Position numbers and translations under genes: made by a program. From NCBI GenBank assembly GCA_011884725.1, contig GCA_011884725.1_3919.1: 64,000 bases of DNA; one strand, given 5' to 3'. Under the pieces are notes generated by a model, which was given only the letters and a program-made list of their open reading frames with translations, made no database searches and had not been told where the DNA came from. Position 1 is the first letter of the stretch. Each line of letters starts with the position of its first letter. The DNA comes from a phage. Shown here piece after piece: positions 2,327 through 41,531 of the stretch.

Positions 2327-4561
2327 ATGATTAAGACAATTAAAAAATCAAACGGTACAGTAGTCAGCTTTGACCCAGAAAGACTGAATAAGTGGGCATC
2401 ATGGGCAGATAAGCGTGGAATTATCTGGTCAGAAGTCACTATGGAAGCCATGAAGCGTGTCTATGAGGGTTGCACTACAAAAGAGATGCACCAAGCCATG
2501 ATTGATGTTTGTGTTGATAAGCAAACTCAAGAGTACTCAGATATGGCTGGACGGCTACTTCTGGGGATTATCTACAAAGAAGCCTTTGGAGGCTTTACTA
2601 AGGTTCCTACGCTGGTTACCTTCGTTAAAAATATGGAGAGAGCAGGGCTTTGGGAGAAGATGGACTATTCTCAGGAAGAGCTTGAATATCTGCAAGGGTA
2701 CATTGTGCACTCAAAAGATATCTCTTACGGCTATGCAGTCCTGAAACAGTTCAGAGACAAGTATGGTATCCGTGATATTAAAACGGGAAGACTTTTTGAG
2801 TCACCACAATTTATGTTTATGGGTATGGCTATGAAAGCCTTCGAGAAGCAACCAAAGCACCGCAGACTGCAAGATGTTATCAAGCTGTACACTTACTTAT
2901 CTGACCTGAAGATTAACGCTCCTACGCCTTATCTGAATGGTTTACGTGCTACTAAGTCAGGTTATGCGTCATGCTGTTTGATTAAGGCGAATGATACTGC
3001 TGAATCTCTCGGTATTGCTGCAAAGGTTGCTTATGATATGACTACAAAGCAAGCTGGTATTGGTATGCTGATGGAGACTCGGACTATTGGTGATGGTATC
3101 CGTCAAAACACTATCGAACACATGGGTAAGCTGCCTTATTACAAGCTTGTACGTTCATCTGTAGAGGCAAATAAACAGAAGAGTCGTGGTGGTTCAGCTA
3201 ACAACTTCTACACCGCTCTAGACCCGCAGATTGAAGATTTACTACGTTTGAAGCACCCTACAACGGTTCCTTCTAAACGTATTAACGAGATGGACTACTC
3301 ATTTGGTACAAATGATTATTTCTGGCAGTGTGTTCAGTATGATACAGATTGGTTGCTATTCTCTTACAAAGATGCACCAAAACTTTATGATATGTTCTAC
3401 ACCGCATCTGCTGATGAGTTCGCTATGGCAGTTGGTCACGCAGTACATTCTGGTGTTAAGCACAGACGAGTAAAGGCTCGTGAAATTGCTAAACTGTTTA
3501 TCCAGCAGCGTTACGCAACAGGTCGTGTGTATCCATTCTTCACAAATAATGCAAATACACATACACCATTTAAAGAACCTTTGAAGATGTCAAATCTTTG
3601 TATGGAAATTGTATTGCCAGTATATGGCTTTGAGAAGGAGACAAACCTTTACAGAGATGATGCTGTGAAAGAGGATGGTGAGGTAGCTCTTTGCTTCCTA
3701 GCTAGTTTGGTTGCAGGGAGAATTTCAGAAGATGAATACGCTGACGTTGCTTATTATGCTCTTGCAATGGTTGACTCCGTTATTGACCTTATGGATTATC
3801 CGTATCCGTCGATGCGTAACCATGTTCAGAAGCGTCGTTCTGTTGGTATTGGCCTTACGAATGTGGCTCATTACCTTGCGAAGAACTACGTGAACTATTC
3901 TTCAAGAGTAGGTAAGACGAAGCTTCATGAGCTTGCTGAAATGCACTCTTACTACTTACACGAAGCTTCTTTAAGACTTGCTAAAGAACGTGGTGTGCCT
4001 GAGTATATGCAGTTCACTAAGTATCCTGAAGGATGGGTTCCTCCAAAGACAGCTAACAGGAAGATTGATGAGAAGCATGATGCAAAACTAAGATATGATT
4101 GGGATGACTTAGCACAACGTATCAAAGAGAACGGTGGAATCCGTAACTCTGTATTAGAGGCTTACATGCCTAATGAGAGTTCTTCTCTGGCGACTAATAC
4201 AACTAACGGCTTGTACCCAATTCGTGACTTTATTTTAACTAAAAAGTCTGCAACTGGTAACGTACTGTTTATTGTTCCAGATTATGAAGAGTTGAAGTAT
4301 GTATATGAAATTGCTTGGGATATTGATACCTTTGACCTGATTGATTGTTATGCAATTGTTCAAAAGTTCACTGGTCAAGCTATCTCTTCAGACTTCTATG
4401 TTGACTATGCAAAGTCTAAGAAGGTATCATTGGCTCAAGCTCTGAAGTACATGATTTATGCCAACTCTGTAGGTATGAAAACCATGTACTACCTTAACAG
4501 TCGCATTGGTGTAGGTAAATCTGCACTGCAAGATGCTTATTGCGAGGGTTGTGGTGTTTAG
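2327..4561 (+). CDS. nrdA: ribonucleoside-diphosphate reductase large subunit (class Ia)
   Basis: 744 aa; N-terminal ATP-cone-like segment; active-site-like SNLCMEI; C-terminal CEGCG cysteine pair; immediately upstream of the small subunit. Confidence 0.9.
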   Translation: MIKTIKKSNGTVVSFDPERLNKWASWADKRGIIWSEVTMEAMKRVYEGCTTKEMHQAMIDVCVDKQTQEYSDMAGRLLLGIIYKEAFGGFTKVPTLVTFVKNMERAGLWEKMDYSQEELEYLQGYIVHSKDISYGYAVLKQFRDKYGIRDIKTGRLFESPQFMFMGMAMKAFEKQPKHRRLQDVIKLYTYLSDLKINAPTPYLNGLRATKSGYASCCLIKANDTAESLGIAAKVAYDMTTKQAGIGMLMETRTIGDGIRQNTIEHMGKLPYYKLVRSSVEANKQKSRGGSANNFYTALDPQIEDLLRLKHPTTVPSKRINEMDYSFGTNDYFWQCVQYDTDWLLFSYKDAPKLYDMFYTASADEFAMAVGHAVHSGVKHRRVKAREIAKLFIQQRYATGRVYPFFTNNANTHTPFKEPLKMSNLCMEIVLPVYGFEKETNLYRDDAVKEDGEVALCFLASLVAGRISEDEYADVAYYALAMVDSVIDLMDYPYPSMRNHVQKRRSVGIGLTNVAHYLAKNYVNYSSRVGKTKLHELAEMHSYYLHEASLRLAKERGVPEYMQFTKYPEGWVPPKTANRKIDEKHDAKLRYDWDDLAQRIKENGGIRNSVLEAYMPNESSSLATNTTNGLYPIRDFILTKKSATGNVLFIVPDYEELKYVYEIAWDIDTFDLIDCYAIVQKFTGQAISSDFYVDYAKSKKVSLAQALKYMIYANSVGMKTMYYLNSRIGVGKSALQDAYCEGCGV

Positions 4562-4616
4562 TTTTAACAACTATGAGGGTCGTAAAAGACCCTCTAAAAA
4601 TAACTTTGGAGAGACC

Positions 4617-4874
4617 ATGAAAGATTTAATAGAAAAACATGAGCGACCAATATACTTGCTCTACAAACCCCGCAAAGCATTATACTATGTGAGCAGCACA
4701 GGTATCATGATAAAGCAGAATGATGACTTATGGGTCACTGGAGCCTCTTACATCTCTACAGCAGATGGTAAAATCTACGCAAGACCTTATGAGATGTTTA
4801 ACAAAGAAAATTGGGAAGTTTTAGACAGAAAACAAGCCTTAGAAATGATAAAGAAAGGAGAAATCACGCTATGA
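4617..4874 (+). CDS. hypothetical protein
   Basis: ATG 4617 preceded by GGAGAG; the track ORF from 4533 overlaps the nrdA end, so the start was trimmed. Confidence 0.45.
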   Translation: MKDLIEKHERPIYLLYKPRKALYYVSSTGIMIKQNDDLWVTGASYISTADGKIYARPYEMFNKENWEVLDRKQALEMIKKGEITL

Positions 4875-5944
4875 TTAACCAGCACCCAATATTTTTAGGT
4901 GGTGAGAGAAAAACTTTTGACTCACTCAATAAGCACTACCCAAAAATCTTTGAACTTTATAAACAACAAAAAGCACAAGACTGGTCAGAAGATGAGTTCC
5001 CTTTTGAACAATCACGTCTTGATTTTGAGAGTGTCCCAGCATCAATGTCAGGTGTAATGCTTGAGATTCTTAAGTGGCAATGGGAAGCAGATACTCAAGT
5101 TGCTAAGAGCTTGGCATTTGCCTTTGCACCCTTTATCTCTGATGACATCTACGCAACTGCAATTATGAAGCAGTCTGAGATTGAGAACCTTCATGCTTTG
5201 ACTTACTCAGAGATTGTAAGGCAATGTATTAAAAACCCTGAAACAATCTTAGATGAGATTAACCAGAATGTTGCTGTACAAGACCGATTAAAAACTGTGA
5301 ATCGTGTTCTTGAAGAATTACTGGATGAAGGTATAAACTATCGCCTGAGTTATGTCCGTGATTCACTTCTGGACAAAGACCCTCTACACTTCCATAAAGT
5401 GATTCTGAAAGGTCTATTTGCAGTGACTGCACTGGAAGGTATATCTTTTATGGCATCCTTTGCATGTACTTTTGCACTTGATGCTCAAGATAAATTTCAG
5501 GGTATTGCTCAAGCTGTCCAGAAAATTATGCTTGATGAAATCCTTCACACTAAAATTGATATTGAAGTTTTAAAAGAAACTTTAAGAGATGATGAGTGGC
5601 AAAAAGCTTTCCAACAAATTCTTCCAGAGATTAAAGTAATCTTAGATGAAGTAGTTGAAAGTGAAGAAAAATGGTCGTATTATATCTTCTCCGAAGGACG
5701 TGCTGTAGTTGGTTTAAATACAAAGCTTCTTCATGAGTGGGTTTACTATAATGCTGCCCCACTGTATGATATGTTTGGCATTCCCAGAGATTTTGTAGCT
5801 CCTAAAGAACCACCTTTGAAGTATATGATTAAGAAGATGGAAATTGATAAAGAGCAGAATGCTAATCAGGAGCAACAGAACGGTGCGTATTTATTGAATA
5901 CTGTTGTAGATGATTTGAATAGTGGATTTTTAGAGGTTCCTTAA
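4871..5944 (+). CDS. nrdB: ribonucleoside-diphosphate reductase small subunit (class Ia)
   Basis: Start taken at ATG 4871 (AAAGGAG upstream; track start 4811 is a TTG); ferritin-like diiron-type protein (EILHTK) following nrdA. Confidence 0.85.
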   Translation: MINQHPIFLGGERKTFDSLNKHYPKIFELYKQQKAQDWSEDEFPFEQSRLDFESVPASMSGVMLEILKWQWEADTQVAKSLAFAFAPFISDDIYATAIMKQSEIENLHALTYSEIVRQCIKNPETILDEINQNVAVQDRLKTVNRVLEELLDEGINYRLSYVRDSLLDKDPLHFHKVILKGLFAVTALEGISFMASFACTFALDAQDKFQGIAQAVQKIMLDEILHTKIDIEVLKETLRDDEWQKAFQQILPEIKVILDEVVESEEKWSYYIFSEGRAVVGLNTKLLHEWVYYNAAPLYDMFGIPRDFVAPKEPPLKYMIKKMEIDKEQNANQEQQNGAYLLNTVVDDLNSGFLEVP

Positions 5945-6186
5945 TGACTTATGTAATTTACTCCAAAACTGGATGCCCTCAGTGTGAGACTGCAAAGAAT
6001 TTTGCGAAAGCTCGTGGTATTGACCATGTTGTGAGAATGTTAGGGCAGGATTATGAACTGTCAGACCTGATGGATATTGCACAGATGCCAGTTCGTCAGA
6101 TGCCATTCATCATGAAAACTGATGGACAAAACCTAAAGCCTGTTGGGACGCTACAGAATTTTATGGCAGAGGTGAATAATGCTTAA
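5944..6186 (+). CDS. glutaredoxin-like protein (NrdH/Grx-type redoxin)
   Basis: 80 aa with CPQC active-site motif near the N-terminus, adjacent to nrdB. Confidence 0.75.
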   Translation: MTYVIYSKTGCPQCETAKNFAKARGIDHVVRMLGQDYELSDLMDIAQMPVRQMPFIMKTDGQNLKPVGTLQNFMAEVNNA

Positions 6187-6385
6187 ACGCATTTGGGAAG
6201 GTTTGGTTGTTGATGCACCAGCTATTGTGATTGGTATGCTGATTGTTAACCTATTTACTGATTTTGAACAAGGTTCGTTGTTTGGGGCCATGTTACTATG
6301 GGTTATCTTTGAAATATTAGAGATACAGTTAGGCATCACTGAAAAACTAAGAAAACTCGTTTCGAAGTTTTCTAAAAAGATTTAA
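6179..6385 (+). CDS. hypothetical small membrane protein
   Basis: ORF track; hydrophobic; followed by terminator 6393-6415. Confidence 0.45.
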   Translation: MLKRIWEGLVVDAPAIVIGMLIVNLFTDFEQGSLFGAMLLWVIFEILEIQLGITEKLRKLVSKFSKKI

Positions 6386-6392
6386 AATGAAA

Positions 6393-6415
6393 GGGTCTCT
6401 TCGGAGACCTTTTTA
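6393..6415 (+). terminator. rho-independent terminator GGGTCTC-TTCG-GAGACC + TTTTT
   Basis: Direct read. Confidence 0.65.
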
Positions 6416-6433
6416 GCATGTAAAGGGGCAATA

Positions 6434-8578
6434 ATGAACAAAGTACAGATTATTAAAAAGAATGGCTCACTTGAAGAACCTGATATCAAAAAAGTTTTAG
6501 CGGCAGTAACAAAGTCAGCTAACAGGGTTGGGTATAGAGAACTTCCACCAGATGTTACCCAAGCTCTTGAGTCAGCATTTATGAGGATTCTGGTAAAGTC
6601 CACTAAGCAGAATAATTTACTAATCTCGGTAAATGATATTCACAGTATTGTTGAGGGTGCTTTGGCAGAAGTTAATCACGAGATTTATGAGTCTTACTCA
6701 ACATATAGAAATTACCGTAAAGAGGTTGCTCAAAATTGGGATGAGCTTTACCAAAAGACCAGAGACACACTCTTCTTAGGTGACCGTGAAAATGCTAACT
6801 TTGACAGCAGTTTAATTTCTACAAAGGGTTCAATTATTCGTGGTTATCTGACTAAAGAAATCTTTAAACAATACTATTTAACACCAGAGGAACTTGAAGC
6901 CATTGAAAAAGGGTTTATCTACATCCATGACTTAAGAGACTTAATTTTTGGTGGTATTAACTGCTGCTTGTTTGACATTGGTAAAGTACTGAAAGGTGGC
7001 TTTGAAATGTCTGGCATCGAATACTGTGAACCGAAGTCTGTACTGTCAGCCTTACAAGTTATCGGTGATGTAGTTCTTTCAGCAACTGCACAGCAATTTG
7101 GTGGCTTTACTTTAGCAGAGATTGATAAGGTACTTGTACCATATGCTAAGAAGTCTCTACGCTATCATGCTGAGAAAGCATCATCTTATGGTATTCCTAA
7201 AGAGCATTACCACAATTATGTAATGGAGCAGTTACAAATTGAACTGACTCAGGGTTTTCAGTCACTTGAGATGAAACTAAATACCGTACCTTGTAGCCGT
7301 GGTGATTTTGCATTCACAACTTTAACATTTGGTTTACTTGACTCAGATATGTCTAATGAGGATAATCGACTCCAATACATGATTGCAAGTACTCTCCTAG
7401 ATGTTCGTATGAATGGACAAGGCAAGAGCAAAAAACCTGTTGTATTCCCTAAACTGGTTTATATTTATGACCAGAAGAGACATGATGAAAATATCTGTCA
7501 AGGTCACCTGTACAGTAAAGCTATTGAGTGTTGCTCTAAAGCGATGTACCCAGATTTCTTAAGTGTGTCTGGTCATGGTGCTGTAGCAGAGGCTTTTGAG
7601 CGTTCTGGTAAGGTAATTTCACCGATGGGTTGCAGAGCCTTCTTATCTCCATATTTTAATGAGGATGGGGAAGAGTTTTACGTTGGTCGTGCTAACATTG
7701 GTGCTGTATCTTTGAACTTGCCAATGATTTACCAGTACTCTAAAGAGAATGGTTTAGATTTCTGGAAAGAGCTTGATAAGTACCTAGAGATGATTCGCAA
7801 CTTCCACAAGAAACGCTACGAAATGATTGCTAATATGCCAGCAAGTTCTAACCCTCTTGCGTTCACACAAGGTGGTCTGTACAAAGGAACTAAGAAACCT
7901 ACTGACAAGGTTGGTTGGGATATTGTGAAGTCCTTCACAGCTTCTTTTGGTGTTACTGCGCTTGATGAGTTGTCTGTTCTTGCTGAAGGTAAACGACTTC
8001 ATGAAGTTGGAAGCTATAGTTTTGCATATGATGTTCTGGCATACATTAACATGAAAACCGAAGAGTTTAAAAATGAAGATGGCTTCTTATATGCCGTCTA
8101 TGGTACTCCAGCAGAATCACTATGTGGGACTCAGCTAAAACAGTTCAGAGATATGTTTGGGGTTATCAAAGGTGTTTCCGATAAGGAATACTTTACAAAC
8201 AGTTTCCATATGAATGTTGCAGCAGACATCTCACCATTTGAGAAGCAGGACTTAGAAGAGCCATTCTTCCATATCTGTAGAGGTGGTAGAATCCAGTATG
8301 TAAGAGTAGCTAACCCAGAAAACTTATCAGCACTTAAGAGTTGTATTACAAGAGGGATGTTGAAAGGTTTCTATCAGGGACTTAACTTTGACTTAGCAAT
8401 CTGTGAGCATTGTGGTAACAGACCAAAGGCTGATGTTGAAGAATGTGAGGTTTGTCATTCACATGATATCTCTGTGATTAACAGGGTGTGCGGGTACTTG
8501 TCATTCACAAAAATTAAAGGTCAGTCTCGAATGAATGACGCTAAGATGGCAGAAATTAAGGATAGGGTTTCTATGTAG
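6434..8578 (+). CDS. nrdD: anaerobic ribonucleoside-triphosphate reductase (class III)
   Basis: 714 aa; C-terminal glycyl-radical-like RVCGYL and CxxC...CxxC zinc ribbon (CEHCG...CEVCHS). Confidence 0.9.
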   Translation: MNKVQIIKKNGSLEEPDIKKVLAAVTKSANRVGYRELPPDVTQALESAFMRILVKSTKQNNLLISVNDIHSIVEGALAEVNHEIYESYSTYRNYRKEVAQNWDELYQKTRDTLFLGDRENANFDSSLISTKGSIIRGYLTKEIFKQYYLTPEELEAIEKGFIYIHDLRDLIFGGINCCLFDIGKVLKGGFEMSGIEYCEPKSVLSALQVIGDVVLSATAQQFGGFTLAEIDKVLVPYAKKSLRYHAEKASSYGIPKEHYHNYVMEQLQIELTQGFQSLEMKLNTVPCSRGDFAFTTLTFGLLDSDMSNEDNRLQYMIASTLLDVRMNGQGKSKKPVVFPKLVYIYDQKRHDENICQGHLYSKAIECCSKAMYPDFLSVSGHGAVAEAFERSGKVISPMGCRAFLSPYFNEDGEEFYVGRANIGAVSLNLPMIYQYSKENGLDFWKELDKYLEMIRNFHKKRYEMIANMPASSNPLAFTQGGLYKGTKKPTDKVGWDIVKSFTASFGVTALDELSVLAEGKRLHEVGSYSFAYDVLAYINMKTEEFKNEDGFLYAVYGTPAESLCGTQLKQFRDMFGVIKGVSDKEYFTNSFHMNVAADISPFEKQDLEEPFFHICRGGRIQYVRVANPENLSALKSCITRGMLKGFYQGLNFDLAICEHCGNRPKADVEECEVCHSHDISVINRVCGYLSFTKIKGQSRMNDAKMAEIKDRVSM

Positions 8579-8585
8579 CATACAA

Positions 8586-9143
8586 ATGAATTACGAACTA
8601 ATATATAATGCAATTATTAAGAAGGCACATTCTGAAAGGGGTGTGCCTCTTACATACTACAAATGTCAAGGTAAGGGTTATGAAAGACACCATATCATAC
8701 CAGTATGTCTAGGTGGCGATAAAATTAGTGGAGATAATATTGCTTTACTTACACCTAGAGAGCATTATATAGCTCATAAATTACTGGTTAAGATGTATCC
8801 AAACAATCATAAGTTATGGTTTGCATGGAACAGGTTAGCTCATGATGGCCTAGATAGGAAAATATCATCCAGAGACTATGAAAAGGTAAGGGCTTTGAAC
8901 TCGAAAGCTCTATCTATTGTGAATAAAGGTAGGGTTTTCACTGAAGAACATCGAAGACGATTAGGAGAATCTCAAATAGGCAATACAAAATCAAAAGGTT
9001 GTAAAAGGTCTATAGAAACAAGGAAGAAGATGTCAGAAGCCGGAAAAAAGCCAAAGAAAAAGAAAACTTGCCCTCATTGTGGTATGACTGGTGGTGCTGG
9101 TAACATGACTCGATATCATTTTGACAATTGTAAGAAAAAATAA
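8586..9143 (+). CDS. HNH homing endonuclease
   Basis: ATG 8586 just after the nrdD stop; HNH motif YERHHIIPVCLGGDKISGDNIALLTPREHYIAHK; basic C-terminus with CPHCG zinc-finger-like pair. Confidence 0.75.
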   Translation: MNYELIYNAIIKKAHSERGVPLTYYKCQGKGYERHHIIPVCLGGDKISGDNIALLTPREHYIAHKLLVKMYPNNHKLWFAWNRLAHDGLDRKISSRDYEKVRALNSKALSIVNKGRVFTEEHRRRLGESQIGNTKSKGCKRSIETRKKMSEAGKKPKKKKTCPHCGMTGGAGNMTRYHFDNCKKK

Positions 9144-9307
9144 CCTTATGTAAAACTTGACAAGGTGGTGTGGGTCTTGATAGGCTTACATCACCTTTTT
9201 TATTGGATGTTAGATATGGCAGAGAGTATTATTGGGTTGTTCATAGGTTCTGTCTTACTAGGGTTCTTTTTAGGACTCTCTTATTGTGAATTAAGAGGCA
9301 AGTTAAA

Positions 9308-9508
9308 ATGTTTAAAATATCAAAAGCGTTGATATACATTCTCCACATTCTAATCTTCTTCTTTGGGGTTAGTGTTATGGTATGGGGTTTTTCAGACCCA
9401 CAATGGAGTTTCGCATATCAGGGTCAGATGGATTTATGGTCATGCTTCAAACCATTTTTAGGGTTAGTCATAGCATTCAGTGCATTGCCAACTAAGGTGA
9501 AATTATGA
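9308..9508 (+). CDS. hypothetical small membrane protein
   Basis: ORF track, 66 aa, hydrophobic. Confidence 0.4.
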   Translation: MFKISKALIYILHILIFFFGVSVMVWGFSDPQWSFAYQGQMDLWSCFKPFLGLVIAFSALPTKVKL

Positions 9509-9900
9509 TTAAGTTGAACAAAAAACAGTTAGAGTGGATTAAAGATTATGCCTCAGAGTGTGGCTCTTGCGAAAAGAATCACGTAAGATATTCAACATTC
9601 CATACGACCTTCACATTGTACATCAGCGACAACGTTCTAAGTGATTCCGTAGAAGATGGTGTAGCGTTACCTAATGAATTGCTTGACAAATTAGCTGTAG
9701 TCTCTGGAACTTGGTCTGAAGAAGACGGTCATGAATTATCTAACGATGTTGTCTTCTACACTCTTGAAAATATTATGAATCCAGAGTACATTATGCTAAT
9801 GACTTGTGCACAAGATTGTGTGCCATTACAAAACTTCATTAAAGAACACTGCGAAGAATTTATTACTAAACAGGTTCCTTGTCAGGTGGTGTTTGAATGA
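9505..9900 (+). CDS. hypothetical protein
   Basis: ORF track; start overlaps upstream stop. Confidence 0.5.
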   Translation: MIKLNKKQLEWIKDYASECGSCEKNHVRYSTFHTTFTLYISDNVLSDSVEDGVALPNELLDKLAVVSGTWSEEDGHELSNDVVFYTLENIMNPEYIMLMTCAQDCVPLQNFIKEHCEEFITKQVPCQVVFE

Positions 9901-10196
9901 GTAAAACAATTCGAAGAAAAGGTTTAAAGAACGTTCATGGACTCTATGAGTGGAGAAATGAGGTACGTAACAGAGAAAATGCTTCAGATGTCTACTTCCA
10001 TTCTGATATGATGTCCAGAAAAGGTGGCTCTTACGACTTCACAAGCCAGCCTTGTAGAGAGATTAAGAAGGCCACTAAACGTCTTACAAGAACACAAATA
10101 AGGCAGCTTTCTAAGACATCCTTCTTAGATGAAGATTTTGATATTGATAGCAAGTCTCCAAAGAAAGCCGCTAAGAACACTTATATGTATTGGTGA
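9897..10196 (+). CDS. hypothetical protein
   Basis: ORF track; start overlaps upstream stop. Confidence 0.5.
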   Translation: MSKTIRRKGLKNVHGLYEWRNEVRNRENASDVYFHSDMMSRKGGSYDFTSQPCREIKKATKRLTRTQIRQLSKTSFLDEDFDIDSKSPKKAAKNTYMYW

Positions 10197-10205
10197 GGTA
10201 ACTAG

Positions 10206-10691
10206 ATGAATTACATGGAGATTCGACCATTTGACACAGCTAATGGTGAAGGGGTTCGTGTAAGCCTCTTCGTAGCTGGTTGTAAGCATCACTGTGAAGG
10301 TTGCTTTAATAAGGAATCTTGGAAGTTTAATGCTGGTAAAGAGTTCACTTATGCAAACCTTTATGGCATCATTAAGTTAATGGATGATAATGCCATCAGT
10401 GGGCTGTCAATACTTGGTGGAGAACCTCTGGATGATAGAAACATTCAAGAGGTTACCAACATATGCAAACGTATTAAAACCGTTTACCCAGAAAAATCTA
10501 TCTGGCTCTGGACAGGTTTTCAGTTACATGAAAAAATTCACCTTGATGTGATGAAATATGTTGACGTGGTGATTGATGGTAAGTATGATTCATCTAAACC
10601 AACAGTTAAACCATATCGTGGTTCTGATAACCAAAACCTCTGGAGAAAAGAGTATGGGTGGCAAGGTGATTGTCAGTGGAGAGCAGAGTGA
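10206..10691 (+). CDS. nrdG: anaerobic ribonucleotide reductase activating protein (radical SAM)
   Basis: 161 aa with CKHHCEGCFNKESW (CxxxCxxC radical-SAM cluster motif); downstream of nrdD. Confidence 0.85.
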   Translation: MNYMEIRPFDTANGEGVRVSLFVAGCKHHCEGCFNKESWKFNAGKEFTYANLYGIIKLMDDNAISGLSILGGEPLDDRNIQEVTNICKRIKTVYPEKSIWLWTGFQLHEKIHLDVMKYVDVVIDGKYDSSKPTVKPYRGSDNQNLWRKEYGWQGDCQWRAE

Positions 10692-11381: not shown

Positions 11382-11394
11382 GCAGATACTATAA

Positions 11395-11420
11395 GGGAAC
11401 TGTAAAGGTTCCCTTTTTAT
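11395..11420 (+). terminator. rho-independent terminator GGGAAC-TGTAAAG-GTTCCC + TTTTT
   Basis: Direct read. Confidence 0.65.
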
Positions 11421-11432: not shown

Positions 11433-11948
11433 ATGTATCTGTCAAATCTGAAACGTTCTGCTGCAATGTCAGTGTTAAGACTCAGTTTTGAGGAACGTCA
11501 AGAGTTCATTGACTCCCACCAATACGACCCTTCCAACTCCAATCACATGATTCTCTGGAATCGTGAGAGTACTCGTGAAAGAGCATTATTTCGATATTAT
11601 CCACACTACACCATAGACAACCTGTATGAATGTTTTGTTGTGAAGAACACCATTACAGTACTCAATAAACTTTGCAGATACACAGGCAGTCAATCCTTCA
11701 CATTAGGCCACCACAAACCTGTTACAAAAGGTGGTGAACATCACTGTGCAAACTGGTTTATTCAGACTAAAGCTGATAACCAGAAGCAAGGAGATAGCCT
11801 TTTAAGTGCCCCTAAGATGACCTATGAAGAGCAAGAGAAATATATCAAAAATAATATGCCAGATGTGCTTGACAACAACTATACAGATTTGGCAATATCT
11901 CTCCTGTTGAAGTTCGAGACAGTTTATAGGGCAACTTATAATGGCTAA
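11433..11948 (+). CDS. hypothetical protein with HNH-like nuclease motif
   Basis: GGAG upstream of ATG; LGHHKPVTKGGEHHCANWFIQTKADNQKQG resembles an HNH core. Confidence 0.45.
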   Translation: MYLSNLKRSAAMSVLRLSFEERQEFIDSHQYDPSNSNHMILWNRESTRERALFRYYPHYTIDNLYECFVVKNTITVLNKLCRYTGSQSFTLGHHKPVTKGGEHHCANWFIQTKADNQKQGDSLLSAPKMTYEEQEKYIKNNMPDVLDNNYTDLAISLLLKFETVYRATYNG

Positions 11949-12219
11949 AGAAAAGTGGGAGATTTTACCATTAGTCAGTGAAGGAGGTAATGGTTGTGAA
12001 ATGTACATGATACGTGGTCATGTTCCAGAGCCAATTGCACTTGAGATGGTAAACAACTTTACAGATGGTTCTTACAAAGACTTAGGCGAACCAACTGTCA
12101 AGCAACAATGGGTTAAACCTGTACCAGACAGCACAGGTAACTGTAGTGTACTTTATCACGTTGTAGACCCTGCAAAATGCAAATCTGCAATGGCAGTAAC
12201 AAACGTAACTTTTGATTGA
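11941..12219 (+). CDS. hypothetical protein
   Basis: ORF track, 92 aa. Confidence 0.45.
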   Translation: MAKEKWEILPLVSEGGNGCEMYMIRGHVPEPIALEMVNNFTDGSYKDLGEPTVKQQWVKPVPDSTGNCSVLYHVVDPAKCKSAMAVTNVTFD

Positions 12220-12230
12220 GAGAGAAAACT

Positions 12231-13112
12231 ATGAAAACATCTATCCGTGTTACAGTTCATTCACCAACTAAAGGGACTCATGAAGAAGAGTTTAACATCG
12301 TCCAATTCCCTTCTGGTGAGATTGGTGGACACTTTTCGCCAGAGTTTGTTGATTTTACTGCTTATGCAGCATCATCCATCAGCAATGTGATTATGATTGT
12401 AAAAGGTTATGACAAGGACACATTGTTTGCTGTGGCACTTGCTAAAGAAGCAATTGATGATTTAATTCCTCATGATTATGCTTTAAAGACTGTCATCTTT
12501 TACTACTTACCAAATGCACGATATGACCGTCACATGTTTAAAGGTGACGCAGCAGCTTTAAAGGTTTTTGCTAAACAGATTAATGCAATGGGATTTGGCG
12601 CAGTCTGTGCAGTTGACCCTCACAGCTATGTACCAGATAACCTGTTTAACTGCTTCCAGAGTATTCCTCAAAAGGAAATTGCAGTCCACTATGCAAATGA
12701 CCCACTGGTTGATTACTTAGTAGCCCCAGATGCAGGTGCTGCTAAGAAGGTTGCAGAGACCGCTAAAGAGGTGGATAAACCATATATCACAATGTCTAAG
12801 GTGCGTAACCTTAAGACTGGTGAAATTACTGGTATGCGAATCCTTGATGATGTTGATTTGACAGATAAAACCGTCATGATTCTGGATGATATCTGTGATG
12901 GTGGTCGAACCTTCATAGAAGCAGCTAAACATCTTCGTGAAGCAGGTGCAAAACGTGTGGAACTCTATGTAACACACGGTATCTTCTCTAAAGATGTTGA
13001 AAACCTTCTTGACAATGGCATTGACCACATCTACACTACAAACTCTTTAGGGGAAGCTAAAGACCGTGGCTTAACACATTATGGTCAAGTTACTGTAGCA
13101 AACCTTGATTGA
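12231..13112 (+). CDS. ribose-phosphate pyrophosphokinase family protein (Prs-like; candidate ADP-ribose pyrophosphokinase Adps of NARP1)
   Basis: ATG 12231 (track start 12216 is a TTG); PRPP-binding motif MILDDICDGGRTF; adjacent to NAMPT-family gene. Confidence 0.75.
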   Translation: MKTSIRVTVHSPTKGTHEEEFNIVQFPSGEIGGHFSPEFVDFTAYAASSISNVIMIVKGYDKDTLFAVALAKEAIDDLIPHDYALKTVIFYYLPNARYDRHMFKGDAAALKVFAKQINAMGFGAVCAVDPHSYVPDNLFNCFQSIPQKEIAVHYANDPLVDYLVAPDAGAAKKVAETAKEVDKPYITMSKVRNLKTGEITGMRILDDVDLTDKTVMILDDICDGGRTFIEAAKHLREAGAKRVELYVTHGIFSKDVENLLDNGIDHIYTTNSLGEAKDRGLTHYGQVTVANLD

Positions 13113-13121
13113 AACTTTATA

Positions 13122-13142
13122 GGGGCTTAAAAGCCCCATTTT
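13122..13142 (+). terminator. terminator-like hairpin GGGGCT-TAAA-AGCCCC + ATTTT
   Basis: Direct read between Prs-like and NAMPT-like genes. Confidence 0.5.
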
Positions 13143-13157
13143 GAGAGAGATTAAAAG

Positions 13158-14939
13158 ATGACTAAATCACTTTATGCAGTACCAGCAGGTTTAAACGCAG
13201 ATGCTTACAAATCTGGTCATGTTTACCAGTACCCTAGTGCAACAGAGTACTTGATGTTCAACCTGACACCACGTAGTGACAAATGGTTTAACAGCCCCTT
13301 AGCAATTGATGGTGTAGTAGCTTTTGGTATTCAACGTTTCGTTAAAGATTACTTGATAGACCACTGGAACGCCACTTTCTTTGAACGTGATAAAAAAGAA
13401 GCCATTGATGAAATCTTAGAAGTCATGAATGGTGTTCTGGGTAAAGATGCTATCGGTCGAGAGCATTGGGAAGCACTTCACGACTTAGGCTATCTACCAG
13501 TTGAAGTATACGCTGTAGAAGAAGGTACAGTTGTTCCTATGCGTGTACCAATGATTGTCTTCCAGAACACTGTTTCAGGTTTCCATTGGGTAGCGGGATA
13601 TCTGGAAGATGCTTTCTCTGCTGAGATTTGGAAGGCTTGTACCATTGCAACTATTGCATTGCATTATAAACGCATCTGTAAGAAGTGGGCTGACCTTACT
13701 TGCGACAATGACTTACATTTACCTTATCAGTGCCATGACTTTGCTATGCGTGGTATGTCCGGCTTTACTGATGACGCATTTAACGCTGTAGGCCACTTAA
13801 CCAGCTTTAAAGGGACTGATAGCTTCCCTGCTGTATATACAGCTAAACGCATCTACGGACAGTCTTACCCAGTCTCTGATATTGGTGGTTCTGTACCAGC
13901 CACTGAACACTCTGTAATGTGTGCAAACATTGCTTGGGAAGGTGGTAATGAGTTGGTTGAAGAAGAAAGACGCTTTAAAGGTGAGTTGCAAACCTTCCGT
14001 CGCTTCTTAACAGAAACTTATCCAACTGGTATTGCAAGTGTTGTTTCAGACACTTATAACTTCTGGAGAACTGTGTCAGAAATCTTACCAGCACTCCGTA
14101 AAGAAATTATGGAACGTGATGGCAAACTGGTAATTCGTCCTGACTCTGGAGACCCTGTACACATTGTCACAGGTTATAAAGCAATCCACTTAGAGTGTGC
14201 TAAAAAGGCTTATTATGAGCACCTAAGCAATCTGGAAGCCAGTGACACAATGCTGAATGCTGTTCTGAACATGAAGCTTGAAAACATCAGTTATGGTATT
14301 GCTGGATGGCTACTGTCAGAAGGCTACGAAATGGTTGTTGACAGAGAAGACTTTGAAGTTGCTGATACAGTGATGTTGAAGAACGCTTATATGGTTGGTT
14401 CTGCAAACGTTGTAACACGCCCTGTAGCAGAGATTGATGGAGCTATTAAGACCTTGTATAACATCTTTGGAGGAACTATTAACTCTAAAGGTTTTAAGGT
14501 ACTGGATGAGCACATTGGCCTTATCTATGGCGACTCTATCACGTTGGAACGTGCAAACGAAATCCTGAAGCGTCTGTATGAAATGGGGTTTGCAAGCTCT
14601 AACGTGGTGTTTGGTGTGGGCTCTTACACTTACCAGTACATGACTCGTGACACCTTTGCATTTGCTGTCAAAGCAACTCTTGCAAGCATTGGTGGCAAAG
14701 AGATTATGCTTGCAAAAGACCCTAAAACAGATAGTGGTGTTAAGAAATCTGCCTTTGGTGGTGTAGCACCTATGTGGGATGGTGAGAATTTGAAAGCTGT
14801 AGATGGCTATGGATTCCAGAGCTTTGCAGATGCACTTGAACATCCAGCTTGTGCTTTACGTTTAGTCTTTAGCGACTCTGAGCAGTACGGTTACACAACT
14901 CTTGGTGATATTCGAAATAATATTGACAAGCAGCTTTAA
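13158..14939 (+). CDS. nicotinamide phosphoribosyltransferase family protein (NAMPT/NadV-like; candidate Namat of NARP1)
   Basis: 593 aa; segments match NAMPT signatures recalled from human NAMPT (DAYKSGHVYQYP, CHDFAMRGMSG, SFKGTDSF, VPATEHSV, VVSDTYNFW, IRPDSGDP). Confidence 0.8.
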   Translation: MTKSLYAVPAGLNADAYKSGHVYQYPSATEYLMFNLTPRSDKWFNSPLAIDGVVAFGIQRFVKDYLIDHWNATFFERDKKEAIDEILEVMNGVLGKDAIGREHWEALHDLGYLPVEVYAVEEGTVVPMRVPMIVFQNTVSGFHWVAGYLEDAFSAEIWKACTIATIALHYKRICKKWADLTCDNDLHLPYQCHDFAMRGMSGFTDDAFNAVGHLTSFKGTDSFPAVYTAKRIYGQSYPVSDIGGSVPATEHSVMCANIAWEGGNELVEEERRFKGELQTFRRFLTETYPTGIASVVSDTYNFWRTVSEILPALRKEIMERDGKLVIRPDSGDPVHIVTGYKAIHLECAKKAYYEHLSNLEASDTMLNAVLNMKLENISYGIAGWLLSEGYEMVVDREDFEVADTVMLKNAYMVGSANVVTRPVAEIDGAIKTLYNIFGGTINSKGFKVLDEHIGLIYGDSITLERANEILKRLYEMGFASSNVVFGVGSYTYQYMTRDTFAFAVKATLASIGGKEIMLAKDPKTDSGVKKSAFGGVAPMWDGENLKAVDGYGFQSFADALEHPACALRLVFSDSEQYGYTTLGDIRNNIDKQL

Positions 14940-14954
14940 AAGTATATGATAAGA

Positions 14955-14976
14955 GGCTCCTACGGGAGCCTTTTTA
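14955..14976 (+). terminator. rho-independent terminator GGCTCC-TACG-GGAGCC + TTTTT
   Basis: Direct read after the NAMPT-like gene. Confidence 0.7.
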
Positions 14977-14992
14977 ATTTCTGGAGAAAATT

Positions 14993-15514: not shown

Positions 15515-17881
15515 ATGCGCATGGTAAACGACCACGCAGAAGTGATTAAGAGTTCAACTTCTTTAGAGACGTCTCAAGCACAGATTACAATGACACCTGA
15601 AATGTTCAGCCTTTTGAGTTCTGGTGTATATACCTTTAAAGAAAGGGCAGTGATTCGTGAACTGTCATGTAACGCAGTAGATGCTCAGAAAGAAGCTGGA
15701 AAAGAGAACATCCCGTTCCATGTGCATTTACCTACTCGTTTTGAGCCTTACTTTGAAGTCCGTGATTTTGGAACTGGATTGACTCATGATAAAGTTATGA
15801 GTTTGTACCTAAACTACGGGGCTTCTACGAAGAATGACTCTAATGACTACATTGGTGCAATGGGTATCGGCTCAAAATCCCCATTTGCAATTGCTCAGTC
15901 ATTCACAGTGTCTAGCTATGTTGACGGTGTTGTTAATAAGTACTCTGTTTATCTTGAGAATGGTATCCCTCAAGTAACTAAGCTTACCACTAACCCAACA
16001 AAAGAGCCTAATGGTTTAGCTGTACGTGTAGCAGTTGCTGACCACCGTATCTCAAAGTTCTTTGAAGAAGCGGGTCACGTATACTCATACTTTGCTGTAA
16101 AACCAGAAAGTAATATCGAGTATGATGATGTATTAGCAGATATGAACGTCATTGCCCGTGAAGAAGGTGTTTACGATGCCATGATTCATAAGCAAAGCTG
16201 GCGTTCTAGTGGTAACAGGACAGAGTTTAATGTGGTGATGGGTAATATTGCCTATCCAGTGAACATGGAAGCATTACTTGGTGATGATTTCTTCAAAGTC
16301 TTGCCAGAGTTTTTCCGTAGGAGCGTAGACCTTGTAAACATCTACATGCCTATTGGTTCAGTTGCTATTGCAGCTTCTCGTGAAGCATTGCAGATGAATG
16401 ACACGACAAAAAATGTTATCATTGAGGCCACTAAAAAGATAACTGAAGCAATTACAAAGGATGTTATCAAGAAAGTTAATAGTCAACCTACACTTATGGA
16501 TGCTGCACAGGCTTATGCTGAGTTACGTTTGAACTCACGAGAGATGTTTAATGCTGTGTGTCCAAAGCTAGAGTGGGGAGGCGTTAAGCTTGATTCTCTG
16601 GAAGAAGAATTACTAAACATTCGTCGTGGAATTATCTACGCAGAAGACGGCTCAGTCATTTATGAACGTGACGGTAAAGGTAATATTAAGGTTGATAGGA
16701 ATGGGAACAATATCCCTAAAGTAGATTATCTTTATGACCCAGTTGCTTATGTCAAGTTCAACTCTTTAGAGAGTAAGATTCGTGCAACATCACTTTCCTA
16801 CACTCAAGAGGCAAGTATGTTCAATATCTTTGGCGCAATGCGTAAAAGCCAAATTGAACAGTTTTTGTTTGTTATAAATGACCGTCGAAATAAAAACGGT
16901 ACTGAGAAGACTGTAGGACGCAACCAAATCTTGCGTGGTGCATGTCGAGACTATGCCAGTGAATCAAGTCTGTTTCACAGATACAATGGTATTGTCTTTG
17001 TATTCTCTACAGAGAAAGAGCTAGACGACTTAATCAATCTGCACAAACTTGATAAAAGCTTGTTAAAGATTGTGAAGATGTCTGATAAGGAACATCATTA
17101 TCAGCGTAAAGAAGCTGTAAGAGGCGTTGTAAAACTTTGGAAAGCTGTTCCAGCAGAAGGTGTAGCTTCCTATAAAGAGGTTTCAGAGGACTTTGATACA
17201 ATTGAAGAACCTCAGCTTTACATTAAGGCAGTCGGTGACACAGTTGATGGTGAATGTTTTTGCTCATCTCCAGAAGATGTAGCTAAGTCAGTTGCTAATG
17301 TTACAGGTAAGACAGTCTATGTTTTCCGAAAAGCAAATTGGAAAAAGATACCAGAAGACTGGATTGAAGTAGATGAGAAACTCTTGAACGACAGCTTAAC
17401 TGATGTTCATTGGATTAATCATAACAGGTATATGACACGTATCTATATGAATGGTGTCCTCGACCTTACAAGCAGTTGGATTATTGCCAGAAACTTTACG
17501 TTCAATAACAGGAAGATTTCTCGTGGCTATTGTTATTCGCGGGATACAAACAAAACTATCTTCTTAGAAGGTAATGAAGATGCTGTAGAGGCAATGTTTG
17601 GTAAAATCCAATACGTTGCTGCACCTTTTGCATACACTTACACTATTAGTGTGTTGCAAGATTTAAAAAGATGTCTTGATAATGATACAAAGCTGTACAA
17701 GAAAATTAAGAAAGCTGGTGACCGTATGGTCATCAAGGTGACAAACTACCTTTCAAAAAGAAAACAAGAAAACTTCTTGCTTTCTCATTTAGATTGGAAT
17801 AAAGTGTCACCCATCGAAGTGAGTAAGTTCTTAGGCTTTGATGTGAAGTGTGTTCCAGAAGGGACTACAATTTACGATTAA
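15515..17881 (+). CDS. rIIA: rIIA protector-from-prophage-exclusion protein (GHKL ATPase fold)
   Basis: 788 aa; N-terminal RELxxNAxDA, DFGTGL, GxGxGSKSPF motifs and overall resemblance to T4 rIIA as recalled; directly upstream of rIIB. Confidence 0.8.
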   Translation: MRMVNDHAEVIKSSTSLETSQAQITMTPEMFSLLSSGVYTFKERAVIRELSCNAVDAQKEAGKENIPFHVHLPTRFEPYFEVRDFGTGLTHDKVMSLYLNYGASTKNDSNDYIGAMGIGSKSPFAIAQSFTVSSYVDGVVNKYSVYLENGIPQVTKLTTNPTKEPNGLAVRVAVADHRISKFFEEAGHVYSYFAVKPESNIEYDDVLADMNVIAREEGVYDAMIHKQSWRSSGNRTEFNVVMGNIAYPVNMEALLGDDFFKVLPEFFRRSVDLVNIYMPIGSVAIAASREALQMNDTTKNVIIEATKKITEAITKDVIKKVNSQPTLMDAAQAYAELRLNSREMFNAVCPKLEWGGVKLDSLEEELLNIRRGIIYAEDGSVIYERDGKGNIKVDRNGNNIPKVDYLYDPVAYVKFNSLESKIRATSLSYTQEASMFNIFGAMRKSQIEQFLFVINDRRNKNGTEKTVGRNQILRGACRDYASESSLFHRYNGIVFVFSTEKELDDLINLHKLDKSLLKIVKMSDKEHHYQRKEAVRGVVKLWKAVPAEGVASYKEVSEDFDTIEEPQLYIKAVGDTVDGECFCSSPEDVAKSVANVTGKTVYVFRKANWKKIPEDWIEVDEKLLNDSLTDVHWINHNRYMTRIYMNGVLDLTSSWIIARNFTFNNRKISRGYCYSRDTNKTIFLEGNEDAVEAMFGKIQYVAAPFAYTYTISVLQDLKRCLDNDTKLYKKIKKAGDRMVIKVTNYLSKRKQENFLLSHLDWNKVSPIEVSKFLGFDVKCVPEGTTIYD

Positions 17882-17886
17882 AGTGT

Positions 17887-17916
17887 TTGACAAGGGGCTT
17901 TGAAGCCCCTTAGAAT
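17887..17916 (+). promoter_or_regulatory. promoter-like TTGACA-18-TAGAAT with GGGGCTTTGAAGCCCC hairpin in the spacer, upstream of rIIB
   Basis: Direct read; hairpin may instead terminate rIIA transcripts. Confidence 0.35.
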
Positions 17917-17960
17917 AGCCTTACAAAATGATTTATTAACTAACAAGAGAGAGTAATAAG

Positions 17961-19070
17961 ATGACTACTAAAACTAAAGCACAGATTGACGCAGAAATTT
18001 ACGAACTGGTTAAAGAAGGTAAGCTTACTAAAACAGCTATTGCACAGAAGTTCAATACTTCAACCCGTTCAGTTGGTCGTGCTGTAGAGCGTCATGAAGC
18101 AACCTTAAAAGGTAAGAAGAAGGTGACTTCTACACCAGCTAAGAAGACCCTAAAACAAGTTGCTAAGTCAGTTAAAAAGAAAGCTGACAAACCAGTTGAA
18201 AAGGCCGTTAAAGACGCTGTACAGAAAGCTCCAGTAAATAAACTGCATGAAGCTATGCAGAAAGATGACAAGATTGAGTACATGATTACTGGTGACTCTG
18301 TAATTATGACTTACGGTTCAGAATCTGAAATTGTTGAGTCTACTCATCCGAACTATCAAGAGATTGTAGTTCATGTTGTGAAAGGTGAGTTCAAGAAAGC
18401 ATTTGAACTGATGAACATTCGTAAGTCTATCGAAAACTTCACTCAGGGTGCTATCACAATCAAAGGTGACAAGCTCTTCTACGGTGCTGTTGAGATGCGT
18501 TCTACTCTGGTTGACCGTATTCTTCACATGATGAAAACTGGTGATAAAGGTTTTGAACGACTTGTAATGTTCTTCGAAAAACTGATGGAAAACCCATCTA
18601 AAGATTCTGTAGAACAACTTTGGGGATTTGTATCTCACCTTGATGTTGAAATTGATGAAGAAGGTTACATCATTGGTTGGAAGAAAGTCTCTACTCGTGA
18701 AGGCAAGCTGGTTGACTCTCACACCTACAAAGTGCCTAATGATTTGGGTAACATTGTAGAGATGCCACGTTGGATGGTTGATAACAACCGTAACGTAACT
18801 TGCTCTCAAGGTCTTCATGTTGGCGCTTGGGATTATGTTCGTTGCTTCTCAGGTGATACCATCCTGAAGGTTCGTGTCCATCCACGAGATGTTGTATCCG
18901 TACCAACTGATTACAACGATATGAAGATGCGTTCCTCTCGTTATGAAGTTGCAGCAATCGTTGATAATCAACGTAAAGTGCTGAAAGCATGGGATGGTAA
19001 GACTGAAGCTTTGCATGTCATCGTTGGCACTGCTGGTGAACTTATCTCTCAACGTAAACGTGAAATCTAA
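17961..19070 (+). CDS. rIIB: rIIB protein
   Basis: 369 aa; C-terminal region (LFYGAVEMRSTLVDRIL, CSQGLHVG, VRVHPRDVVSVPTDYNDMKMR) resembles T4 rIIB as recalled. Confidence 0.8.
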   Translation: MTTKTKAQIDAEIYELVKEGKLTKTAIAQKFNTSTRSVGRAVERHEATLKGKKKVTSTPAKKTLKQVAKSVKKKADKPVEKAVKDAVQKAPVNKLHEAMQKDDKIEYMITGDSVIMTYGSESEIVESTHPNYQEIVVHVVKGEFKKAFELMNIRKSIENFTQGAITIKGDKLFYGAVEMRSTLVDRILHMMKTGDKGFERLVMFFEKLMENPSKDSVEQLWGFVSHLDVEIDEEGYIIGWKKVSTREGKLVDSHTYKVPNDLGNIVEMPRWMVDNNRNVTCSQGLHVGAWDYVRCFSGDTILKVRVHPRDVVSVPTDYNDMKMRSSRYEVAAIVDNQRKVLKAWDGKTEALHVIVGTAGELISQRKREI

Positions 19071-22724: not shown

Positions 22725-23504
22725 ATGGGTATTGTAAAAGTTGTGAAAGGTAACTTACTAGCTGCCTTCAAAAACACAGACATTGAGTTAATTGCTCATG
22801 GTTGCAACTGCCGTAACCTCATGGGTGCTGGAATCGCTCAAAAAATTGCTAAGATTTTCCCAAAAGCTGAAGAAGCTGACCGGAAATTCCATAAAAAGTT
22901 TGGCTACAGCGCTCATGATATCGGATACCAGATGATTGGTGAGGTGTCACATGCTCGAACGGAGTATGGTTACATTTTTAACCTATATACACAGTTGGAT
23001 GTTGGGAAGTGTGCATCATACCGATACTTAGTGGAGTCACTAGAAAAACTCCGTAAATTTTGCTGGATGCACAACATTCGTAAGATTGGTTTACCCATGA
23101 TTGGTGCAGGTATCGGTGGTTTAGACGCACAAGCTGTGAAAAGCCTCATTAATAGCGTTATGTACAACGTTGATGTGTACCTATACGTCTATGATGAAGC
23201 AATGGCAACTGTAGTTACCCCTAAGTATGCCACCTCAGCACCACAATTCTATGATGGTGTCGTGCTAAGTGACGGTAAGTCTAACCATGTTACCCTCTAT
23301 CAGCTTGTTGATGGTAAGGTCGAGGCTAGTTACCCTCTGGTTAGTGAGATGGGTATGTGTAATAGTGAAATGTTCTCAATTGACCCGTTTGGTAGATACG
23401 AAGGGGTGTTCTTTGATAGCTACCCAGCAGCATACATCTACACAACAAATCAGGATGAAGTTCACTACTTGCTGTATTCTAAAAAGTTCAAATTCATAAA
23501 CTAA
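22725..23504 (+). CDS. macro-domain-like protein (possible ADP-ribose binding/processing)
   Basis: N-terminal VKGNLLAAFKNTDIELIAHGCNCRNLMGAGIAQKI resembles the macro-domain GD(I/L)...AIVNAAN...GGGV pattern; assignment is tentative. Confidence 0.4.
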   Translation: MGIVKVVKGNLLAAFKNTDIELIAHGCNCRNLMGAGIAQKIAKIFPKAEEADRKFHKKFGYSAHDIGYQMIGEVSHARTEYGYIFNLYTQLDVGKCASYRYLVESLEKLRKFCWMHNIRKIGLPMIGAGIGGLDAQAVKSLINSVMYNVDVYLYVYDEAMATVVTPKYATSAPQFYDGVVLSDGKSNHVTLYQLVDGKVEASYPLVSEMGMCNSEMFSIDPFGRYEGVFFDSYPAAYIYTTNQDEVHYLLYSKKFKFIN

Positions 23505-25137: not shown

Positions 25138-25463
25138 TGACTGGTATCACTGCAATCATTGCCATTTTCGCGCTCTATAAGGCATATAAAGCCTATAATC
25201 TAGCAAATAAGGCAATCACACAACAGGTTAGTAATAGCCTTGTAATGAGCTTTCTAGAGCGGTTGAGCGATGAACAATTAAAGCGGTTAGAAATGAGCTT
25301 CAGATTCAGGGCGAGAACTTATCAAATCAGCGACATTTTCAAAGATGATTTTCAATTAGTCGATGATTATAATTCTCTGATAAATGCTTTAAATATTAGT
25401 GACTTAAAAGACTATCATACTGTAATTGTTCAAGAGTTGAGCAAACGAAAACAAAACTGTTGA
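25131..25463 (+). CDS. hypothetical small membrane protein (array gene 4)
   Basis: ORF track; start overlaps upstream gene; hydrophobic N-terminus. Confidence 0.45.
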   Translation: MLMTGITAIIAIFALYKAYKAYNLANKAITQQVSNSLVMSFLERLSDEQLKRLEMSFRFRARTYQISDIFKDDFQLVDDYNSLINALNISDLKDYHTVIVQELSKRKQNC

Positions 25464-25488
25464 CACTGATTTTTAGATAGATTAAATT
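25460..25488 (+). promoter_or_regulatory. sigma70-like promoter TTGACA-17-TAAATT inside type-A cassette
   Basis: Hexamers read directly; an identical roughly 60 bp segment including this promoter recurs at 26324-26352. Confidence 0.5.
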
Positions 25489-25552
25489 ACACATCAACGG
25501 GGAGGGAATGACCTTCCCCACTAAGTAAAGTCCTTAAACTAGGAGATTCAAA

Positions 25553-25825
25553 ATGTATACTACTAACAACGGTCGCACTTTAAATGTCACTCTACGTCAC
25601 TATGTCGACGGTGTGATGCACTTTGAGGATTTACAGGCTGAGCAACATATCTTAAATTGGCAAGTCGCAGGACTCCAAAAAACTGCTACCGGATACGGCA
25701 AAAAGATTCCAACTAGCTGGAAAGTTCACTATGAAGGCCGTTTGCGCAGAATTTATCAGGATGTATGTAACAATAGCACATCAAGTTACATCATAGTAAA
25801 AGGTAAAAAACTGCATTTAGTATAA
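25553..25825 (+). CDS. hypothetical small protein (array gene 5)
   Basis: ORF track; type-A cassette with TTGACA-17-TAAATT promoter upstream. Confidence 0.55.
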   Translation: MYTTNNGRTLNVTLRHYVDGVMHFEDLQAEQHILNWQVAGLQKTATGYGKKIPTSWKVHYEGRLRRIYQDVCNNSTSSYIIVKGKKLHLV

Positions 25826-25910
25826 AGTACTTTACAGGGGGCTTATTAGTCTGTACAGTAAGCCCCAGATAAAGAGCTTTACCACTCAATCCTAAATTGG
25901 AGATTCTAAA

Positions 25911-41015: not shown

Positions 41016-41022
41016 AATTAAT

Positions 41023-41426: not shown

Positions 41427-41438
41427 CAAAATTGAAAT

Positions 41439-41526: not shown

Positions 41527-41531
41527 ATAAA

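Follow-up and report, generated by a model that had tools for sequence, protein, structure and literature searches.

A probable NARP1 NAD+ reconstitution gene pair in a Felixounavirus genome, with a mosaic adps gene and a lineage-specific insertion in Namat

The 64,000-nucleotide stretch of phage DNA analysed here (contig GCA_011884725.1_3919.1 of assembly GCA_011884725.1; hereafter the window) carries two adjacent plus-strand genes that very probably constitute the NAD+ reconstitution pathway NARP1 of a Felixounavirus. The first, adps, extends from an ATG at 12231 to a TGA at 13112 and is predicted to encode a 293 amino acid (aa) ADP-ribose (ADPR) pyrophosphokinase with the Prs fold, that is, a synthetase of ADPR pyrophosphate (ADPR-PP). 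The second, namat, begins after a spacer of 45 nt, extends from an ATG at 13158 to a TAA at 14939 and is predicted to encode a 593 aa nicotinamide ADP-ribose transferase with the NAMPT fold. The window belongs to a Felixounavirus genome: over this locus nucleotide identity reaches 98.8% with Escherichia phage SP22 and 98.6% with wV8, and virtually all of the 258 phage records that match it are Felix O1-like Ounavirinae.

The first NARP1 operon to be discovered was that of the Felixounavirus JohannRWettstein (Bas63), formed by genes 79-80 (Osterman et al., bioRxiv 10.1101/2024.02.11.579819). Comparison with the Bas63 genome (MZ501086) revealed that the window pair is the positional orthologue of bas63_0079/0080. 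The two phages belong to the same genus and share synteny, with the pair located downstream of nrdG and with rIIA/rIIB further downstream; the proteins are of equal length and align without gaps, at 78% identity for Adps and 98% for Namat. An initial annotation, made from the letters of the window and its open reading frames (ORFs), had read the pair as NARP1-like, and this reading is upheld by the orthology. The mechanically called adps ORF opens at a TTG at 12216; we took ATG 12231 as the start because it is preceded by a GAGAGA ribosome-binding site and agrees with the annotation of Bas63 and Felix O1. The system is one already known, found here in the genus of its discovery, and the pair itself brings no new biology; the new material consists of three side observations described below, namely an allele replacement in Adps, an orphan insertion in Namat and a distal Macro-domain protein.

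The function of the Bas63 pair has been validated experimentally. Deletion of the operon rendered the phage sensitive to SIR2-HerA, the operon still defeated SIR2-HerA in a pncC nadR double-mutant host, and ADPR-PP (m/z 720.010) was detected only when both the intact operon and the defence system were present (Osterman et al., bioRxiv 10.1101/2024.02.11.579819). An independent screen found that knockout of either Bas63 gene caused a 1e4-1e6 loss of plating on Sir2-HerA, with weaker effects on retron Ec86 and hhe. For in vitro work homologues from phage SPbetaL1 were used because the Bas63 protein purified poorly; the purified enzymes converted ADPR and ATP to ADPR-PP, and ADPR-PP and nicotinamide to NAD+, with ADPR-PP preferred over phosphoribosyl pyrophosphate (PRPP). 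We infer the chemistry and anti-defence phenotype of the window pair from these in vivo results on Bas63 and from the in vitro assays and crystal structures of the SPbetaL1 enzymes. A host NADase effector, for example SIR2-HerA, type I Thoeris, DSR1/2 or SEFIR, would split NAD+ into ADP-ribose and nicotinamide. With ATP as donor, Adps would then pyrophosphorylate ADPR at C1'' of its terminal ribose to give ADPR-PP, and Namat would swap that pyrophosphate for nicotinamide by NAMPT-type chemistry, yielding NAD+ directly with no nicotinamide mononucleotide (NMN) adenylyltransferase step. The phage would in that case carry a broad-spectrum counter-measure to NAD+-depleting immunity of these types (SIR2-HerA, Thoeris I, DSR1/2, SEFIR), which is relevant to host-range prediction for Felixounaviruses, phages used in diagnostics and therapy.

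The adps product matched PF00156 (8e-12), PF14572 (5e-10), TIGR01251 (9e-36) and phrog_619 (1e-96). The initial annotation had recognised a Prs-family gene with a PRPP-binding motif, and this was confirmed: the motif, MILDDICDGGRTF, lies at residues 216-228, with the phosphoribosyltransferase loop DDICDGGRT at residues 219-227. The predicted catalytic lysine is K190 (MSKVRN), which aligns with K162 (GHKQRN) of SPbetaL1 Adps, and the protein keeps the motifs common to Prs and other Adps proteins (FPSGE, ARYDR, DPH, PDAG, K190 and DDICDGG). When Adps was compared with the Prs-specific NCBIfam models (equivalog or subfamily), as the initial annotation had suggested, it scored 44-105 bits against cut-offs of 296-536 and missed them all; the sole Prs model that it passed was the broad subfamily TIGR01251, at 123 bits against a cut-off of 113. 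Its identity is 78% to Bas63_0079, 36% to SPbetaL1 Adps and 34% to Dax Adps in a multiple alignment, compared with 25% to E. coli Prs. Judged from such pairwise and multiple-alignment identities and from profile scores, rather than from a tree, Adps groups with the phage Adps clade and not with the bacterial Prs clade. In published data, 97% of the Adps clade has a Namat gene in its immediate vicinity (Osterman et al., bioRxiv 10.1101/2024.02.11.579819), and in the window namat begins 45 nt downstream. The window Adps is predicted to use ADPR rather than ribose-5-phosphate as acceptor.

The adjacent NAMPT-family gene proposed at 13158-14939 was likewise confirmed, its product matching PF04095 (5e-35), PF18127 (2e-5), NF006629 (2e-140) and phrog_448 (9e-203); on their profile scores, the Prs and NAMPT family assignments of the pair are far beyond chance. 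Namat proteins are told from Nampt by their catalytic core, a clamp helix motif and a clamp loop (PMC12774641), and the window Namat carries every one of these published discriminators. The core residues D15, Y17, F195, R198, D221, H251, R327 and D329, the catalytic histidine among them, are invariant in an alignment of 37 homologues. F189, D215, R306 and D308 of SPbetaL1 Namat correspond to F195, D221, R327 and D329 of the window protein; R327 is thus the counterpart of the arginine mutated as R306G/A in SPbetaL1 Namat (PMC12774641). The clamp helix consensus is GSX-phi-X-phi-X-phi-TRD with aromatics at positions 3 and 7 (PMC12774641), and the window sequence GSYTYQYMTRD (residues 488-498) conforms to it with Y490 and Y494. 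In the clamp loop the third residue is Arg, Lys or Tyr, and the fourth stacks if the third is Lys or Tyr (PMC12774641); after the TPR motif the window Namat reads S40-D41-K42-W43, in keeping with this rule. The K42-W43 loop, the GSYTYQYMTRD helix and the insertion domain described below are all the same in Bas63 Namat. Together, the K42-W43 loop and the Y490/Y494 helix would form an adenine-binding clamp that selects ADPR-PP over PRPP, and the window Namat is predicted to prefer ADPR-PP.

The fold of Namat is consistent with this assignment. An AlphaFold2 model (pLDDT 93.5, pTM 0.91) was searched against the PDB with Foldseek, and the best matches were the Namat crystals 9w5x/9w5w (E about 1e-52, TM 0.95), with H. 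ducreyi NadV and human NAMPT ranking below them; the structure comparison that had been proposed as a check on the initial annotation thus placed the protein nearest to Namat. Comparison with the source of these crystals, Bacillus phage SPbetaL1 (9W5W/9W5X, PMC12774641), revealed the same adps-then-namat order, the same catalytic lysine and Namat core, and equivalent clamp helix aromatics (F392/Y396, corresponding to Y490/Y494). The two systems are only distantly related, at 36% identity for Adps and 43% for Namat, and differ in several details: the SPbetaL1 clamp loop uses R40 in place of K42-W43, its Namat lacks an approximately 15-aa insertion after the catalytic histidine and the approximately 85-aa insertion domain of the window Namat, and its genes abut (sharing one base, position 2495 of the stretch compared), whereas those of the window are separated by a 45-nt spacer with a hairpin.

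An alternative is that the pair performs ordinary NMN salvage: PRPP formed from ribose-5-phosphate by the Prs-like protein would be joined to nicotinamide by the NAMPT-like protein, and the resulting NMN would be carried on to NAD+ by host routes that depend on NadR or PncC. The canonical enzymes (E. coli Prs, b1207, and archaeal class III Prs, 4TWB; human NAMPT and H. ducreyi NadV, 9KE8) do share folds and catalytic motifs with the window proteins, the Pfam, NCBIfam and GenBank annotations all name Prs and NAMPT, and Adps passes TIGR01251 at subfamily level. However, the window Adps is far below the Prs equivalog cut-offs and only 25% identical to the E. coli enzyme, and the clamp helix of the window Namat is unlike its NAMPT equivalent, with NAMPT/NadV structures ranking lower in the fold search. 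The ADPR-PP selectivity clamp itself disfavours PRPP supply coupled to NAMPT. Experimental results on the homologues point the same way: SPbetaL1 Adps gave no product in a Prs-type control assay, and SPbetaL1 Namat given both substrates made only NAD+. In Bas63, where ADPR-PP is made in vivo, rescue from SIR2-HerA needs neither host PncC nor NadR and therefore argues against salvage. We regard this explanation, which the initial annotation had listed as its alternative, as extremely improbable on account of the Bas63 genetics and metabolomics and the clamp signature. A corollary concerns database labels. Among about 85 annotated records of relatives listed, none names the pair Adps or Namat; the function-bearing labels are ribose-phosphate pyrophosphokinase and nicotinamide/nicotinate phosphoribosyltransferase (NAPRT), with some nadR, hpt and pncB. 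The Prs and NAMPT/NAPRT labels predict the wrong chemistry, and predate or ignore the NARP1 work.

The second known pathway, NARP2 (NadV/Nampt with NatV/Nmnat-Nudix; Vibrio phage KVP40), resembles the window system in using a NAMPT-family enzyme and in countering NAD+ depletion, but differs in that the window has an adjacent adps gene, a Namat clamp in its NAMPT-family protein and no detected Nmnat or Nudix. No phage with both NARP1 and NARP2 appears in published data. In agreement with the initial annotation, which had recognised no NMN adenylyltransferase (NMNAT)-like gene, neither NMNAT (CTP_transf_like, PF01467) nor Nudix was found among the Pfam matches listed for the 70 window ORFs of at least 92 aa, a list outside which lie 13 weak families from the structural-gene batch. 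The window thus holds no detected NatV-like Nmnat gene, and none is annotated at positions 30-80 kb of Bas63.

Several points weigh against reading the pair as NARP1. The window represents 64 kb of a roughly 88-kb genome, and this bears on the absence of NMNAT. As a secondary activity, Namat can still form NMN from PRPP in vitro, at roughly half the level seen with human NAMPT (PMC12774641), which would also suit NMN salvage. The in vitro enzymology was obtained with SPbetaL1 homologues, none of it with proteins from a Felixounavirus. A search of PDB sequences and the literature found neither a solved Adps structure nor a published Adps-versus-Prs specificity determinant; the best PDB sequence match of Adps was the archaeal class III Prs 4TWB (4e-18), and the literature retrieved on specificity covers Namat and RyDEP only. 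The assignment of Adps specificity accordingly relies on orthology and gene context. Finally, in the first 175 residues of the window Adps, identity to its validated Bas63 counterpart drops to only 66%.

This last discrepancy corresponds to a sharply bounded segment at 12231-12755 (plus strand), comprising codons 1-175, the N-terminal half of adps, which makes the gene a mosaic relative to Bas63. Nucleotide identity to Bas63 fell to 63-79% across 12200-12700 compared with 93-97% in the flanks, and the two Adps proteins share 95% identity over their last 118 residues. Within codons 1-175 synonymous divergence is saturated (dS approximately 1.7) and dN/dS is 0.15, which rules out decay or positive selection as the cause of the divergence and indicates that the N-terminal half is an old allele brought in by recombination. 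Felixounaviruses carry two deep allele classes of this half, the window type in 155 records and the Bas63 type in 94. It could be argued that the pair is NARP1 by descent but that the replaced half has altered or abolished Adps activity, through a change of acceptor or regulation or through outright loss, in which case Namat would function by itself as a NAMPT. The extent of the divergence is compatible with such a change, and we found no experimental test of a window-type allele in the literature. Against it, the divergent half is under purifying selection, aligns to Bas63 without frameshifts or gaps and retains all motifs shared by Prs and Adps; furthermore, the window type is the commoner Felixounavirus allele and, among the matches listed, is always followed by an intact namat. 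We therefore consider an altered Adps very improbable and retain NARP1 as the explanation of the pair. Across both genes dN/dS is low (0.05 for namat, 0.07-0.15 for adps), and adps and namat are thus under purifying selection. We found no description of the Adps N-terminal allele replacement in the NARP1 literature.

Namat contains a lineage-specific alpha/beta insertion mini-domain of about 85 aa (approximately residues 340-427; 14175-14438, plus strand), identified from the AlphaFold2 model and by comparison of homologues. The insertion is confidently folded, with a pLDDT of 94-97 in context and of 91.5 (pTM 0.80) when modelled alone, and a structure search with the mini-domain returned no significant structural match. 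Among the homologues compared it is confined to Namat genes of Ounavirinae, and in other Namats the insertion site is a length-variable hot spot. The insertion is not discussed in the structural paper (PMC12774641), nor did we find it described elsewhere in the NARP1 literature.

We also noted a plus-strand gene at 22725-23504, 7.8 kb downstream of the pair, that encodes a 259-aa Poa1p/TARG1-like Macro-domain protein (PF01661, 29.6 bits against a cut-off of 22; phrog_335, 'phosphatase', 1.5e-84) and is the sole Macro gene in the window. Its PDB sequence matches are TARG1, DarG and yeast Poa1p, and its C-terminal approximately 100 aa have no family match. The protein recalls NARP1-AP, an Adps-Adpp-Namat arrangement described in Vibrio phages Gary and Dax (bioRxiv 10.64898/2026.01.28.702374), whose Adps and Namat are homologous to those of the window (34% identity for Dax Adps and 41% for Namat) and which likewise includes a Poa1p/TARG1-like Macro protein. 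Its identity to the Macro protein encoded between Adps and Namat in Dax is 29%, and the two share the motifs H-x-CNC...MG-x-GIA and GLP-x-IG-x-G. In contrast to NARP1-AP, the window gene lies neither in nor beside the operon, no Macro gene being found within two genes of the pair, and its product bears the additional C-terminal region. A Macro/Adpp accessory in the NARP1 operon itself was not found: the two genes on each side have no Macro match, and the only matches of the flanking ORFs are to PHROGs of unknown function. No RyR/RyDEP domain (PF02026) was found in the window among the matches listed.

The Macro protein is a candidate unlinked Adpp-like accessory. The published survey of Adpp covered only genes within two positions of NARP1 (bioRxiv 10.64898/2026.01.28.702374), so an unlinked Adpp would have escaped it. 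An extended, unclustered NARP1, with the Macro protein working in trans either as an ADPR-1''-phosphate phosphatase of the Adpp type or as another supplier of free ADPR, is an unlikely proposal. A clear orthology to Adpp was considered and found unsupported: the window protein gives about 78-81 bits with T4-type Tk.4 Macro genes, whose phages are not known to have NARP1, compared with 57 bits for Dax Adpp. Because T4-like phages commonly carry members of this family, we treat the protein as a lead rather than a finding. The gene is itself variable, being only 41% identical to its Bas63 counterpart at the protein level, and the window allele occurs at an identity of at least 90% in only 13 phage records. 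If the proposal were correct, the Macro protein would feed into NARP1 and bring aRES-type defences within its reach, and the deep allelic splits of the Macro protein and the Adps N-terminal half, as well as the Namat insertion with its orphan fold, would be signs of a continuing arms race over the pathway. A role of this protein as an unlinked Adpp could be new, in that we found no description of one in the NARP1 literature.

The 45-nt spacer between adps and namat (13113-13157, plus strand), as read from the sequence, comprises a hairpin GGGGCT-TAAA-AGCCCC (13122-13137), the sequence ATTTT and a ribosome-binding site GAGAGAG (13143-13149). The hairpin stem is 6 bp and GC-rich, and the terminator scan did not call it. 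The same ribosome-binding-site-like motif, TTGAGAGAGA, precedes both adps and namat. Felix O1 and many Salmonella relatives carry an HNH homing-endonuclease gene between adps and namat (1816-2307 of the Felix O1 stretch compared) where the window has only the spacer. An intrinsic-terminator-like hairpin with a 10-bp stem and a T-run is located at 14951-14974 (plus strand), 12 nt past the namat stop codon, where the transcription unit probably ends. Together, terminator-like hairpins at 11393-11415 and 14951-14974 (strong) bracket four ORFs (11433-14939), of which the first two are small plus-strand ORFs upstream of adps (11433-12219) encoding proteins of 171 aa (phrog_3500) and 92 aa (phrog_4726). 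These are probably co-transcribed with adps, given their position between the hairpin at 11393-11415 and that gene, and are not part of the NARP1 chemistry.

The Bas63 neighbourhood of NARP1 is rich in reported counter-defence genes. The 171-aa ORF (11433-11948, plus strand) is 97% identical to bas63_0077 and gives a weak HNH-like signal. A Bas63 'Gp77', there called GIY-YIG, has been reported to counter retron Ec67; we assume from the locus-tag numbering that it is bas63_0077, and there may be a mismatch in the numbering or in the domain assignment. Genes for rIIA-like (788 aa) and rIIB-like (369 aa) proteins are located just downstream of NARP1 (15515-19070, plus strand), and their Bas63 orthologues, g84 and g85, have been reported to counter QatABCD. 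In Bas63, namat is immediately followed by an additional gene of 345 nt, bas63_0081, which is absent from the window (14940-14992, opposite 25456-25858 of the Bas63 sequence compared); a further indel of about 160 nt relative to Bas63 occurs near window position 10700.

Elsewhere, the window encodes a structural module, nrdA/B, nrdD/G, rIIA/B and 26 tRNA genes. The aerobic (NrdA/B) and anaerobic (NrdD/G) ribonucleotide reductase genes lie upstream of NARP1, within 2327-10691, and a PRA-PH (MazG-like) Pfam match was recorded among the ORFs of window positions 1-29 kb. A SegE-like GIY-YIG homing endonuclease gene is located at 150-650 (plus strand), and the tRNA genes form a cluster at 40939-46117 (plus strand), with a few small ORFs interspersed.

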